DNA of 5,283 nucleotides. It comes from a virus (lineage: Duplodnaviria > Heunggongvirae > Uroviricota > Caudoviricetes). Shown here piece by piece: positions 1,258-4,115 of the stretch. The stretch lies in IMG/VR virus record IMGVR_UViG_2675903509_000008; one strand, given 5' to 3'. The position numbers and the translations under genes are program-made. The notes under the pieces are model-generated. The model saw only the letters and a program-made list of their open reading frames with translations, was not told the DNA's origin and ran no database searches. Within the stretch, counting starts at the first letter, position 1; the number at the start of each line of letters is the position of its first letter.

Positions 1258-1550
1258 GGGTCAGAGTTTATATTGCCGGTCCAATGACGGGATATGAAAA
1301 TTTCAACCGTGAGGCGTTTCACAAGGCGGAAGAGGAACTGAAACGGGAAGGGCATACCGTCTTAAACCCGGCAGTACTTCCGGACGGGCTGACACAGCCG
1401 CACTACATGGATATTTGCATGGCAATGATTCGTTGTGTGGATGCGATTTACATGCTGAATGGCTGGCAGCGGTCAGCGGGCGCTAAGGCAGAGCTGGCAC
1501 TGGCGGAGAAACTGGGGCATGCAGTGATTTATCAGGAGGTGGCTCAATGA
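1254..1550 (+). CDS. DUF4406 family protein (nucleoside 2-deoxyribosyltransferase-like fold)
   Basis: GTG 1254 with AGGAGG 1241-1246 at 7-nt spacing, GTGA overlap with the upstream stop. 98 aa. N-terminal VYIAGPMTG glycine loop and C-terminal GWQRSAGAKAELALAEKLGHAVI match the DUF4406/NDT-like pattern as I recall it. The track start at 1185 would run through the upstream gene. Confidence 0.85.
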   Translation: MRVRVYIAGPMTGYENFNREAFHKAEEELKREGHTVLNPAVLPDGLTQPHYMDICMAMIRCVDAIYMLNGWQRSAGAKAELALAEKLGHAVIYQEVAQ

Positions 1551-2011
1551 GAGAGGTTAACTATGAGGCGCTTCGTGAGGCAGCACAAAACTATCAGTCG
1601 ACGCTGGCGTGGTATCAGGCTATCCCGGACAGCCCAAATGCTGAACAACGGGATTGTGATGCGGCTCTTGCTGCGTTTAAGCGTCACATCCGTCATCGGG
1701 AAGCGGATATTATCGCTGATTTGCTGGATGGACTGGAAGAAGCAAAATCACAACTCAAAGAGCAGCGTGAGTATTACGAAGGCGTTATCTCTGATGGGAG
1801 CAAGCGTATTGCTGAACTGGAAGCGCGGGAAGTTCAATTACCGACTCGCTACGACCTTCGATATGGACACCCGATAAATGCAGATGAGCGACATGTCATG
1901 ATACCTAAAGAAAATGGCAGTTGGCTTTACCTGATTGACCTAGAACACGCATTACGCGTCTCTGGCATTCGCATCAAAGGAGAGGAGCATGGAAATAAAA
2001 CCAGAGGATGA
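1547..2011 (+). CDS. phage hypothetical protein (predicted helical/coiled-coil N-terminal half)
   Basis: ATG 1547 overlaps the upstream stop (ATGA); AGGAGG 1534-1539 at 7-nt spacing. 154 aa, no internal stops, E. coli-like codon usage. Confidence 0.8.
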   Translation: MREVNYEALREAAQNYQSTLAWYQAIPDSPNAEQRDCDAALAAFKRHIRHREADIIADLLDGLEEAKSQLKEQREYYEGVISDGSKRIAELEAREVQLPTRYDLRYGHPINADERHVMIPKENGSWLYLIDLEHALRVSGIRIKGEEHGNKTRG

Positions 2012-2345
2012 GTTAAGCAATATCGTTTTATTTCCGGTAAAAGAGGATGACCCTCGTAATCAGGTTAATTTTCTTTATGAGCCATCGGAAAGACCATATT
2101 GTCATCACGCCTCTGTCCGGGTTGACGAAAAAGAGCGTCAGGTCCGCTGTAAAATCTGCGGTGCAGTTGTGGAGCCATTTGACTGGATGCTCTCTGTGGC
2201 GAAAAGAGAAACCAGACTGGCAGATGATGTAAGGCACTTGCGCCAGGAGGAGCGGGAAAGGCGAAAAAATATAGAAAAGCTAATTCAGATTGAGCGTAAC
2301 GCGAAAGCGCGGATACGCAGGGCGACAAAATCCAGAACTGAATAA
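1989..2345 (+). CDS. phage hypothetical protein with a CHH...CxxC putative zinc-ribbon and a basic C-terminal helix
   Basis: ATG 1989 preceded by AAAGGAGAGGAG 1976-1987; overlaps the upstream ORF by 23 nt. Motif YCHHASVRVDEKERQVRCKICG; Arg/Lys/Glu-rich tail. Confidence 0.75.
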   Translation: MEIKPEDELSNIVLFPVKEDDPRNQVNFLYEPSERPYCHHASVRVDEKERQVRCKICGAVVEPFDWMLSVAKRETRLADDVRHLRQEERERRKNIEKLIQIERNAKARIRRATKSRTE

Positions 2346-2409
2346 TTAAATTTAGCTCTGTTAAAAATTTAATCCTTAACCGGAGGGATTTCTGCACCCT
2401 CAGAACATC

Positions 2410-2438
2410 AGGAGGCCGCCCGAAAGGGCGGTAGTTAA
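2410..2438 (+). promoter_or_regulatory. hairpin-split ribosome binding site (SD - GAAA-tetraloop hairpin - start codon)
   Basis: AGGAGG 2410-2415, then perfect 6-bp stem CCGCCC (2416-2421) / GGGCGG (2426-2431) around a GAAA loop, then 7 nt to ATG 2439. The linear SD-to-ATG distance is 23 nt; it becomes 7 nt if the hairpin forms. Confidence 0.4.
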
Positions 2439-2621
2439 ATGCGAAAGTTTAAAATAATTATTGAAACGGGAATAGCCGGTGGAGATTTCGAGGATGAATT
2501 CGAAGTGGATGATGATGCGACGCCTGATGAAATACATGACGAAGCAAAAGATATTTTCTTTAACTACTGCAATTACTCATATCACGAAATAAAAGACGAA
2601 GAGGAAGAGCAAAATGGCTGA
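2439..2621 (+). CDS. small, strongly acidic hypothetical protein (60 aa)
   Basis: ORF MRKFKIIIETGIAGGDFEDEFEVDDDATPDEIHDEAKDIFFNYCNYSYHEIKDEEEEQNG with 19 Asp/Glu against 5 Lys/Arg. Stop TGA 2619-2621 overlaps the next start. Confidence 0.7.
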   Translation: MRKFKIIIETGIAGGDFEDEFEVDDDATPDEIHDEAKDIFFNYCNYSYHEIKDEEEEQNG

Positions 2622-2790
2622 TTTTGGTTCAACTAAATACAACGTCAGTTTTGAAGCATGGCATGAACTGTTAATGGACTATGCAGAGTTACGTGGTGGC
2701 AGTGCTGCTGATGCTGAAGCATGGCGTGATGATTATGAAGCAGGAAAAACTCCGGTCGAAGCATATTGTGATGAGTGGGGCGATGAATGA
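2614..2790 (+). CDS. small acidic hypothetical protein (58 aa), absent from the supplied ORF track
   Basis: ATG 2614 with GAGGAAGAG 2601-2609 upstream. Translates without stops to MADFGSTKYNVSFEAWHELLMDYAELRGGSAADAEAWRDDYEAGKTPVEAYCDEWGDE. It exactly fills the gap between neighbours, with stop/start overlaps at both ends (ATGA at 2787-2790). Confidence 0.6.
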   Translation: MADFGSTKYNVSFEAWHELLMDYAELRGGSAADAEAWRDDYEAGKTPVEAYCDEWGDE

Positions 2791-3302
2791 GCGAGATTAA
2801 TTATCAGGAAGGGCATGAAACGGCAGGGCAGGCAAAAACAGTGGCATGGCGATATCGCTACGTGAAAAAAGACGTTACAGACTTTCAGGGGAAGCCGTGG
2901 GCTGGTGACTGGAAATATGTACCGACAAAAGAGGATTGTAACGACAGGCCGAACTATGAAATTCAGGCCTTATTCATCGGCCCGCCAGTCCCGGTGACAT
3001 CAGAAGGACTGGTTAAAGCCGTGCGCTTTTATGAACAGGTAAAGCGTGAGAATCCGCCAGTCGAAACAGGAGCATGGAAGGATGCTGTTGACCGGGTGCT
3101 CAGAGAGGCCTGCTGCGCTGCCATTCTGGGTAAAGCCGACAATCCACCAGCATCCGGCAATCAGGTTAGCGAATTAACAATGTGGGTTAAACGACTGGTC
3201 AGTCAACTGAAAAAAGCTCAGCCGGACTGCAAATTACCGGAGAAGGCGATGGATTACCTGAAACGAAATGGACTGATAAGCGTGGAGGATGTTTTACGAT
3301 GA
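2787..3302 (+). CDS. phage hypothetical protein (171 aa)
   Basis: ATG 2787 overlapping the upstream stop; long stop-free frame with E. coli-like codon usage; stop TGA 3300-3302. Confidence 0.8.
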   Translation: MSEINYQEGHETAGQAKTVAWRYRYVKKDVTDFQGKPWAGDWKYVPTKEDCNDRPNYEIQALFIGPPVPVTSEGLVKAVRFYEQVKRENPPVETGAWKDAVDRVLREACCAAILGKADNPPASGNQVSELTMWVKRLVSQLKKAQPDCKLPEKAMDYLKRNGLISVEDVLR

Positions 3303-3422
3303 ATATTTAGACTAAAGAGTTTGTAACGCTATGTAAGTGATTTTTTCTGGTTTAGATATTTATATGTCCGGCCAAATTGAGGTGTGTTTAAATGTTATTG
3401 CACATTGATTGTAGGGGGAATA

Positions 3423-3602
3423 ATGAAAAACGCATTGCAGTTTTTGTTTGTTGCGTTCTGGTTGTTCGCATCATGTATGCCCATCATCTTCACAGCAAGG
3501 TATATGGAAAAAATTGATGTTTTGATATTAATGTTTGGACATATAAATGCCCTTTTTTTAGGGGTGTTCATGGCGGTCATGTGCATTGAATACTGGCGGT
3601 AA
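3423..3602 (+). CDS. small hydrophobic membrane protein, two predicted transmembrane helices (59 aa), in an AT-rich insert
   Basis: ATG 3423 preceded by AGGGGG 3413-3418; the track's GTG 3384 start lacks an SD. Two hydrophobic stretches (ALQFLFVAFWLFASCMPIIF and IDVLILMFGHINALFLGVFMAVMCI). Rare codons (tta, ttg, ata, agg) and visibly lower G+C than the flanks. Confidence 0.55.
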   Translation: MKNALQFLFVAFWLFASCMPIIFTARYMEKIDVLILMFGHINALFLGVFMAVMCIEYWR

Positions 3603-3657
3603 ATACAGCGAACGCCATTGGTTTAGTTGGATATTTACTGTGCCGGACAAAAACGGT

Positions 3658-3685
3658 TTGCGGGGAAATCTTAGTTAAGTAGAAT
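3658..3685 (+). promoter_or_regulatory. candidate sigma70 promoter for the hok transcript
   Basis: -35 TTGCGG 3658-3663, 16-bp spacer, -10 TAGAAT 3680-3685. The predicted start near 3692 would give a transcript of roughly 420 nt to the terminator, similar to known hok mRNAs. Confidence 0.35.
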
Positions 3686-3744
3686 AACTGCGGGTGCTTG
3701 AGGCTATCTGTCTCAGGCATGAACACCAAAAGGCAGATAGAGAA

Positions 3745-3812
3745 AAGCCCCAGTTAACATTACGCGTCCTGCAAGACGCTTAACATTAATCTGAGGCCAT
3801 ATCTATGCGACA
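3745..3812 (-). ncRNA. candidate Sok-like antisense RNA against the mok/hok leader
   Basis: On the minus strand: -35 TTGACC (complement of + 3842-3847), 18-bp spacer, -10 TAATCT (complement of + 3818-3823). A transcript starting near 3811 would be antisense to the mok-like start codon (3805) and its GAGG (3793-3796). The 3' end is not defined; a GCGTC/GACGC hairpin (+ 3764-3779) lacks a U-tract. Confidence 0.3.
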
Positions 3813-3864
3813 CATAGAGATTAGCCTCTTACGGACCGAAAGGTCAAGGAGAAGCAGGCTATGA
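3805..3864 (+). CDS. mok-like leader ORF (19 codons), translationally coupled to hok
   Basis: ATG 3805 with GAGG 3793-3796 at 8-nt spacing; translates MRHIEISLLRTERSRRSRL; its TGA 3862-3864 overlaps the hok ATG 3861-3863 (ATGA). Confidence 0.4.
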   Translation: MRHIEISLLRTERSRRSRL

Positions 3865-4016
3865 AGCAGCAAAAGGCGATGTTAATCGCCCTGATCGTCA
3901 TCTGTTTAACCGTCATAGTGACGGCACTGGTAACGAGGAAAGACCTCTGCGAGGTACGAATCCGAACCGGCCAGACGGAGGTCGCTGTCTTCACAGCTTA
4001 CGAACCTGAGGAGTAA
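3861..4016 (+). CDS. hokD: Hok-family type I toxin (HokD/RelF-like, 51 aa)
   Basis: AAGGAG 3846-3851 at 9-nt spacing to ATG 3861. Translation MKQQKAMLIALIVICLTVIVTALVTRKDLCEVRIRTGQTEVAVFTAYEPEE matches the Hok family signature and, from memory, HokD/RelF over its full length. Confidence 0.9.
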   Translation: MKQQKAMLIALIVICLTVIVTALVTRKDLCEVRIRTGQTEVAVFTAYEPEE

Positions 4017-4084: not shown

Positions 4085-4115
4085 AACCCGCTTCGGCGGG
4101 TTTTTGTTTTTATTT
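4085..4115 (+). terminator. rho-independent terminator of the hok transcript
   Basis: Stem AACCCGC (4085-4091) / GCGGGTT (4096-4102) around a TTCG loop, followed by TTTGTTTTTATTTT. Confidence 0.7.

Follow-up and report, generated by a model that had tools for sequence, protein, structure and literature searches.

Small, strongly acidic proteins of mobile elements include the DNA mimics Ocr, ArdA, Ugi, phi29 p56 and T7 gp5.9. Phage proteins of comparable size include T7 Gp2, a host RNA polymerase inhibitor of 64 amino acids, and T4 Dmd, an antitoxin of about 60 amino acids. The exo-xis genes of lambdoid phages are early, small and non-essential, and influence lysogenisation and induction (PMC3824215, PMC7093339, PMC8614690). 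Two overlapping open reading frames (ORFs), referred to here as A and B, lie in a 5,283-nucleotide stretch of a Caudoviricetes genome (IMG/VR record IMGVR_UViG_2675903509_000008; the whole stretch is called the window) and invite comparison with each of these systems. With the DNA mimics they have in common a high negative charge density, small size and carriage on phages or plasmids; with the exo-xis and nin genes (Ea22, Orf60a, Orf61, Orf63, Orf73) they have in common their neighbourhoods, a place in early operons and the character of small non-essential ORFs. Positions 2400-2800 of the window are 100% identical to many E. coli chromosomes, including that of ATCC 25922, where the counterpart region is a Qin/Rac-like lambdoid prophage.

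Comparison of sequences indicates that A and B come from separate families, unrelated to each other and uncharacterised, of small, globular and strongly acidic mobile-element proteins. Each is independently mobile, and the "pair" is a local arrangement of two independent cassettes. The features of the locus are as follows.

2410-2414, plus strand: AGGAG, Shine-Dalgarno-like element of A (read from sequence)
2415-2432, plus strand: 7-bp stem-loop with GNRA tetraloop, GCCGCCC-GAAA-GGGCGGU (RNA minimum-free-energy and centroid folds)
2439-2621, plus strand: ORF A, acidic protein of 60 amino acids, Pfam DUF7167 / PHROG 1997
2601-2605, plus strand: GAGGA, Shine-Dalgarno of B (read from sequence)
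2614-2621, plus strand: ATGGCTGA, 8-nucleotide overlap of the A stop and the B start (read from sequence)
2614-2790, plus strand: ORF B, acidic protein of 58 amino acids, PHROG 519, no Pfam family
2787-2790, plus strand: ATGA, 4-nucleotide overlap of the B stop and the start of a 171-amino-acid PHROG 660 gene

Two genes under purifying selection and their families

A preliminary description of the window had placed tandem acidic ORFs of 60 and 58 amino acids at 2439-2621 and 2614-2790, and these coordinates and lengths hold, as do the stop/start overlaps on both sides of B (8 nucleotides with A and 4 nucleotides with the next gene). A recount reproduces the 15 Asp/Glu and 4 Lys/Arg given for B; for A the 5 Lys/Arg are right, but the acidic residues number 20 rather than 19. 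B is indeed missing from the ORF track, for which a 60-amino-acid cutoff is the sole cause. The isoelectric points of A and B are 4.05 and 4.06, with net charges of about -15 and -11. Per residue, A carries a net charge of -0.25 and B one of about -0.19 to -0.21, compared with a mean of -0.008 (standard deviation 0.075) for 71 annotated proteins from the early regions of the ATCC 25922 prophage and phage ArgO145, of which A and B are the two most acidic.

A and B are real protein-coding genes under purifying selection. Both are short, B falls under usual ORF-calling cutoffs, and ORFs of about 60 codons often arise by chance (64 ORFs of at least 30 amino acids were counted in the window), so that one or both might have been spurious and untranslated; the length of either ORF is without significance by itself. 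However, for A (33 distinct alleles) the pooled ratio of nonsynonymous to synonymous polymorphism (pN/pS) in the annotated frame is 0.115 and for B (26 distinct alleles) 0.135, whereas four of the five remaining frames give values of about 1-5. The antisense frame also gives a low ratio (0.15-0.23), which is expected because it shares third codon positions. The frame at 2614-2790, whose conservation in related loci had been named as a point on which B could fail, is therefore kept. Diverged homologues of both proteins retain a conserved core, both have compact and confident AlphaFold2 models, Shine-Dalgarno elements and stop-start coupling are present, and RefSeq annotates both genes. The reading of A or B as spurious is thus largely excluded and is given almost no probability. 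The RefSeq entries are WP_001224662.1 (DUF7167 family protein) for A and WP_000753058.1 (hypothetical protein) for B; the genes are already catalogued and are therefore not new sequences. The preliminary description proposed an undescribed function; the function is indeed uncharacterised, but both proteins are already in RefSeq and PHROG, and A in Pfam.

A matches Pfam PF23768 (DUF7167) with an E value of 7.9e-15 and 55.1 bits against a gathering cutoff of 24.4, its residues 2-53 aligning to model positions 1-60 of 60, as for a full-length family member, and it matches PHROG 1997 with an E value of 9e-31. Its relatives, which carry precomputed PF23768 hits, are stand-alone proteins of 55-60 amino acids in prophages of E. 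coli, Klebsiella, Citrobacter and Yersinia, and they also occur in virulent Klebsiella Guernseyvirinae and, at about 42% identity, in Enterococcus Herelleviridae phages. Members from phages of E. coli, Citrobacter, Klebsiella, Yersinia and Enterococcus have 15-20 Asp/Glu against 2-5 Lys/Arg, and the acidic C-terminus is kept throughout the family. Invariant positions are M1, R2, I8, E9, T10, E22, V23, A27, T28, I32, A36, D38, F40 and C44. From these comparisons, DUF7167 is conserved across bacterial phyla. The AlphaFold2 model of A, built from a shallow alignment (predicted local distance difference test score, pLDDT, 79), has strands at 2-9, 16-23 and 45-51, a helix at 29-39 and a short acidic helix, i.e. 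a predicted beta1-beta2-alpha1-beta3 fold followed by an acidic C-terminal tail (DEEEEQNG). A Foldseek search of BFVD with this model gave nothing at an E value of 1e-3 or below and every match was uncharacterised, and searches of NCBIfam, PADLOC and PDB sequences with A returned no match. DUF1187, which looks similar to A by eye and precedes B on IncI2 plasmids, was considered as a homologue and dropped (hhalign probability 0.2%).

B matches PHROG 519 with an E value of 2e-22 and 81 bits. HMMER, run over all 1.84 billion cluster representatives (50% identity clustering), recovered 76 relatives at E values of 1e-3 or below, nearly all of them stand-alone acidic proteins of 50-65 amino acids, and most have 11-19 Asp/Glu against 3-8 Lys/Arg. 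Relatives diverged to about 30% identity still hold a hydrophobic and aromatic core. Conserved in the family are F13, W16, L20, A24, a G(G)S turn, D33, W37, Y41, G44 and T46-P47, together with an aromatic residue near 51 and 55. The AlphaFold2 model of B (pLDDT 86.5) is a predicted three-helix bundle (13-27, 34-42 and 47-55). B has no relative in Pfam, NCBIfam, PADLOC or PDB, and Pfam scans of 39 diverse relatives yielded no family. In a scan for domain fusions covering longer relatives (P0184, P0175, P0143 and others) and neighbouring ORFs, only DUF1187 on P0143 was above threshold, and this looks like read-through with the upstream gene. The profiles of both families gave only noise against the PDB (a short match to ORF56 at an E value of 0.2, and proteins designed de novo). 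Sequence databases name these proteins only "prophage protein" or "hypothetical", and neither of them turned up in a literature search that covered family names, accessions, sequence motifs, exo-xis genes and IncI2. Homology to a structural or housekeeping family would have spoken against the preliminary description; only uncharacterised families are matched.

The arrangement 5' of A is AGGAG, the hairpin at 2415-2432, six nucleotides and the AUG, with AGGAG, which is kept in most related loci, at a linear distance of 24 nucleotides from the AUG. The hairpin is conserved across loci, including one variant with a compensatory G-C to A-U double change and a loop variant from GAAA to GGCA that is still GNRA. 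It has no T-run, and the terminator scan made no call there. If formed, it would shorten the effective distance between the Shine-Dalgarno-like element and the AUG to about 6-7 nucleotides. Such shortening by a hairpin is known for some T4 genes. A recombination breakpoint falls within the hairpin in some loci. The GAGGA of B lies 8 nucleotides before its ATG and is embedded in Glu codons of the acidic tail of A. From the stop/start overlaps, A, B and the following gene are apparently translationally coupled. No plus-strand sigma-70-like promoter and no intrinsic terminator were found by scanning 1900-3900; therefore, A and B should be read from a long early transcript. A moron-like reading, in which they have their own promoter, was dropped for the same result.

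Distribution of A and B across mobile elements

Of 5426 complete E. coli genomes, 2413 match the stretch at 2400-2800, 1748 of them with a match that spans at least 80% of its length. Among 80 E. coli-type IMG/VR loci retrieved by means of B, 78 place full-length A immediately upstream of B with the overlap unchanged; of the other two, one has a partial A and one has an in-frame deletion of A with B intact. The genes flanking A-B are mosaic among these 80 loci. A scan of genome contigs returned three loci only. In the deletion locus (L033, 4975-5005) nearly all of A is missing, MRKF is fused to RKNK and the start of B follows; this contig holds a second A-B copy at its end. The E. coli prophage module also occurs at about 92-93% nucleotide identity in PP818812.1 ("Actinobacillus phage vB_Apl-pPE4"). 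Such a match would not be expected in a phage of Pasteurellaceae and points to contamination or an incorrectly assigned host.

B is found without A in Kuttervirus phages of about 157 kb, immediately downstream of the major capsid gene, in a Serratia prophage, on a Thiotrichaceae contig, on high-GC viral contigs beside a transglycosylase-like ORF, and in 554 plasmid records, 516 of them conjugative. On IncI2 conjugative plasmids, more than 400 of them, it has 86% identity (414 records of this MOB-suite type at 80-90% identity; the IncI2 homologue is WP_000753050.1), and on large MOBH plasmids about 49%. The order on IncI2 is a CaiF/GrlA-like regulator, a DUF1187 gene, B, SPFH/NfeD and type IV secretion genes. 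Nucleotide homology between phage and IncI2 sets in at the ATG of B and dies away no more than a few bases from its stop (L122, 7501-7677). This homology is limited essentially to the B ORF, which makes B a one-gene cassette. In both the prophage and IncI2, a TGA inside the Met-Ala-Asp codons of B (ATGGCTGA) ends an unrelated upstream gene.

A is found without B in Guernseyvirinae, beside genes for a DUF2800/PD-(D/E)XK nuclease and an annealing protein, in Enterococcus phages, after an ASCH/DUF3850 gene, and in Citrobacter-type prophages, between an Ead/Ea22-like gene and an unrelated basic ORF of 59 amino acids. Prophages of Klebsiella and Yersinia likewise carry A alone. In Klebsiella Guernseyvirinae (L108, L109 and L120, 2501-4025) the DUF7167 gene runs into the 5' end of a DUF2800/PD-(D/E)XK nuclease gene of 438-454 amino acids, and the module includes Nmad5, Enc34-type single-stranded DNA-binding and DNA polymerase A genes. 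One record of this group mislabels the 55-amino-acid DUF7167 protein "PD-(D/E)XK phosphodiesterase".

The pL exo-xis region of Stx2a phage ArgO145 holds the same block of Ead/Ea22, Zn-ribbon, A and B genes (L114, 6112-8760, against window 1547-3302), with a methyltransferase gene, a toxin-antitoxin pair, an anti-repressor gene and an HNH gene as neighbours; this phage also has a gam-like gene. The Ead/Ea22-Zn-ribbon-A-B module has thus moved between pL exo-xis and pR nin-like early operons.

Candidate functions of A and B

The mechanism given most weight, put forward tentatively and at somewhat less than an even chance, is that each protein alone would bind or inhibit, in a stoichiometric manner, a partner with positive charge, which is most likely a host protein that binds nucleic acids. 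Production would come early in lytic growth and, for plasmid-borne B, possibly during establishment in a new cell. Both would then be classed as host-takeover or counter-defence accessory proteins, and they are reasonable candidates for host-protein inhibitors. An enzymatic role is unlikely because the proteins are too small and lack catalytic-looking motifs, and their compact small-domain models have no enzyme-like match. Both are probably too acidic to bind DNA themselves. With net charges of about -15 and -11, the two polyanions are not likely to associate with each other and therefore probably act separately. A host partner is preferred to an element-encoded one because the families occur on unrelated mobile elements with no constant neighbouring gene. 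A more ambitious form of this proposal is that B would be the first known member of a cross-element inhibitor family, borne as a one-gene cassette on temperate phages, virulent Ackermannviridae and the backbones of IncI2 and large MOBH plasmids and directed against a conserved proteobacterial DNA-binding defence or surveillance protein, and that A would be directed against a factor conserved in Firmicutes and Proteobacteria. About 40% of E. coli genomes would then encode these two as novel proteins of counter-defence or host takeover; this is rather unlikely.

An obligate two-protein system, either a complex or a toxin-antitoxin-like pair, is very improbable and was rejected on the gene distribution: each gene is found without the other in many lineages, the natural deletion of A keeps B in place, and the phage-plasmid homology spans essentially B alone. 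The strong acidity of both proteins disfavours mutual binding, there is no toxin-like neighbour and an "antitoxin" label is unsupported in its record. Neither family has a conserved partner gene across contexts, as would be expected of a type II toxin-antitoxin system. Strict DNA mimicry, in which arrays of carboxylates on A and/or B would block restriction enzymes, RecBCD, uracil-DNA glycosylase or similar proteins, is a subset of the inhibitor reading and is itself improbable. It draws on the net charge per residue of -0.25 (A) and -0.19 (B), conserved in both families, and on predicted strand 2 of A (D16-V23), where acidic and hydrophobic residues alternate such that the model would present an all-acidic face. 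B spans phages and conjugative plasmids, like ArdA-type genes, and A adjoins a nuclease and single-strand annealing module in Guernseyvirinae; gam and T7 gene 5.9 likewise adjoin exonuclease genes. The anti-restriction, anti-CRISPR or host-takeover function proposed in the preliminary description is supported in part, with acidity and mobile-element carriage in its favour but no homology to a mimic or anti-CRISPR protein.

Two further readings place the partner or the effect within the life of the element or its host. A and B could act, as small chaperones or modulators, on proteins with which their own elements replicate, recombine or are packaged, which is considered unlikely, though not negligible. 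A overlaps the nuclease gene start and lies near annealing protein and DNA polymerase genes in Klebsiella Guernseyvirinae, it follows an ASCH/DUF3850 gene annotated "exonuclease" in Enterococcus phages, and in lambdoid prophages it is surrounded by replication and nin genes; that the proteins of Firmicute and Proteobacterial phages are 42% identical also fits a phage-carried partner. B stands beside the Kuttervirus capsid gene and near repA on IncI2. However, no neighbour is conserved across the contexts of either family, so that no constant element-encoded partner is evident, and the plasmids, temperate phages and virulent phages that carry B have no machinery for replication or packaging in common. 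Developmental modulators of the lambdoid exo-xis/nin type (Ea22, Orf63, Orf60a, Orf73), tuning lysis-lysogeny or induction via host physiology, would suit the position of the Ead/Ea22, Zn-ribbon, A and B module in the ArgO145 exo-xis region and of the window module next to an Ead/Ea22-like gene. This reading has a low probability: PDB sequence searches with A and B matched no solved exo-xis structure, and both families occur in strictly virulent phages, and B on plasmids, where no lysis-lysogeny decision exists.

Genomic setting and comparison with known systems

A and B lie within a long co-directional early transcription unit, between replication genes and the hokD/RusA/Q-like gene group. 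On one side, the ATCC 25922 prophage has an integrase, an excisionase, a RecE-like exonuclease, dicB and relBE, next a regulator, a YdaT-like gene, an HTH (helix-turn-helix) replication protein and a DnaC-like ATPase, and then DUF1627, DUF977 and a series of small ORFs. On the other side are hokD, DUF968, RusA, a Q-like DUF1133 gene and lysis and terminase genes. From this gene order, the site of A and B is the nin-like stretch of the early-right operon. Their neighbours in the window are listed below.

130-849: DUF1627 gene
865-1257: DUF977 gene
1254-1550: DUF4406 gene of the early operon (E value 5.7e-38)
1547-2011: Ead/Ea22-like gene
1989-2345: Zn-ribbon protein gene
2787-3302: PHROG 660 protein of 171 amino acids, function unknown, directly after B

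Several N bases at 85-103, near the start of the DUF1627-carrying gene, account for X residues in the translation of that gene. The DUF4406 gene is weakly similar to nucleoside 2-deoxyribosyltransferases and may be a nucleotide-metabolism accessory gene. Downstream, 3303-3700 is an AT-rich island (GC 36-39%) with a very hydrophobic ORF of 59 amino acids at 3423-3602 (MKNALQFLFVAFWLF...), which is unannotated in the ATCC 25922 record and intact in 46 related loci with conservative substitutions only; it may encode a small membrane protein that annotation has missed (moron). Next, at 3692-4016, comes a complete type I toxin-antitoxin locus, hok/sok (Rfam sok at 3692-3863, 106.7 bits; hokD ORF at 3861-4016), with GC-rich hairpins after hokD and a T-run around 4087-4110. 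It is the sole toxin-antitoxin element near A-B and is separate from the pair.

What is new here is that B behaves as a cassette in phages as well as in IncI2 and MOBH plasmids, that DUF7167 is conserved across phyla, and that the evidence makes the "pair" a local arrangement. B is a backbone gene of IncI2 (mcr-1-type) plasmids. If A or B does inhibit a host defence or DNA-metabolism protein, a new family would enter the anti-defence repertoire, with relevance to the spread of plasmids and, since B is present in Kuttervirus phages, to phage therapy. If they are ordinary accessory proteins, the lesson is that acidity alone is no proof of DNA mimicry. The genes are very common and hence good candidates for screening, although nothing in them would surprise a specialist.

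A and B have the charge of the DNA mimics, but no sequence or fold similarity to Ocr, ArdA, Ugi, phi29 p56 or T7 gp5.9 was detected for either. Homology to T7 Gp2 is not supported (hhalign probability 0.3%, E value 0.17, 10 columns), and no Gp2-family Pfam hit was obtained at an E value of 0.1 or below. A test for homology to known anti-CRISPR proteins was negative, and no aca-type HTH gene adjoins A-B, the neighbours being the Zn-ribbon and PHROG 660 proteins. PADLOC models gave no match for A or B at an E value of 1 or below. The exo-xis/nin genes have no homology to A or B, which occur also outside temperate phages. Because such homology is missing, A and B are not assignable to the Ocr/ArdA/Ugi mimics, Gp2, anti-CRISPR proteins, toxin-antitoxin systems or exo-xis genes. 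The systems they do match are families without an assigned role. A is identical in kind to PF23768/PHROG 1997, with no difference from it, a family of unknown function on which no literature was found. B matches PHROG 519 only in part (positions 76-137 of the 143-position profile). This family lacks a model in Pfam or NCBIfam and has a wide distribution among Kuttervirus (Ackermannviridae) phages, temperate phages and conjugative plasmids.
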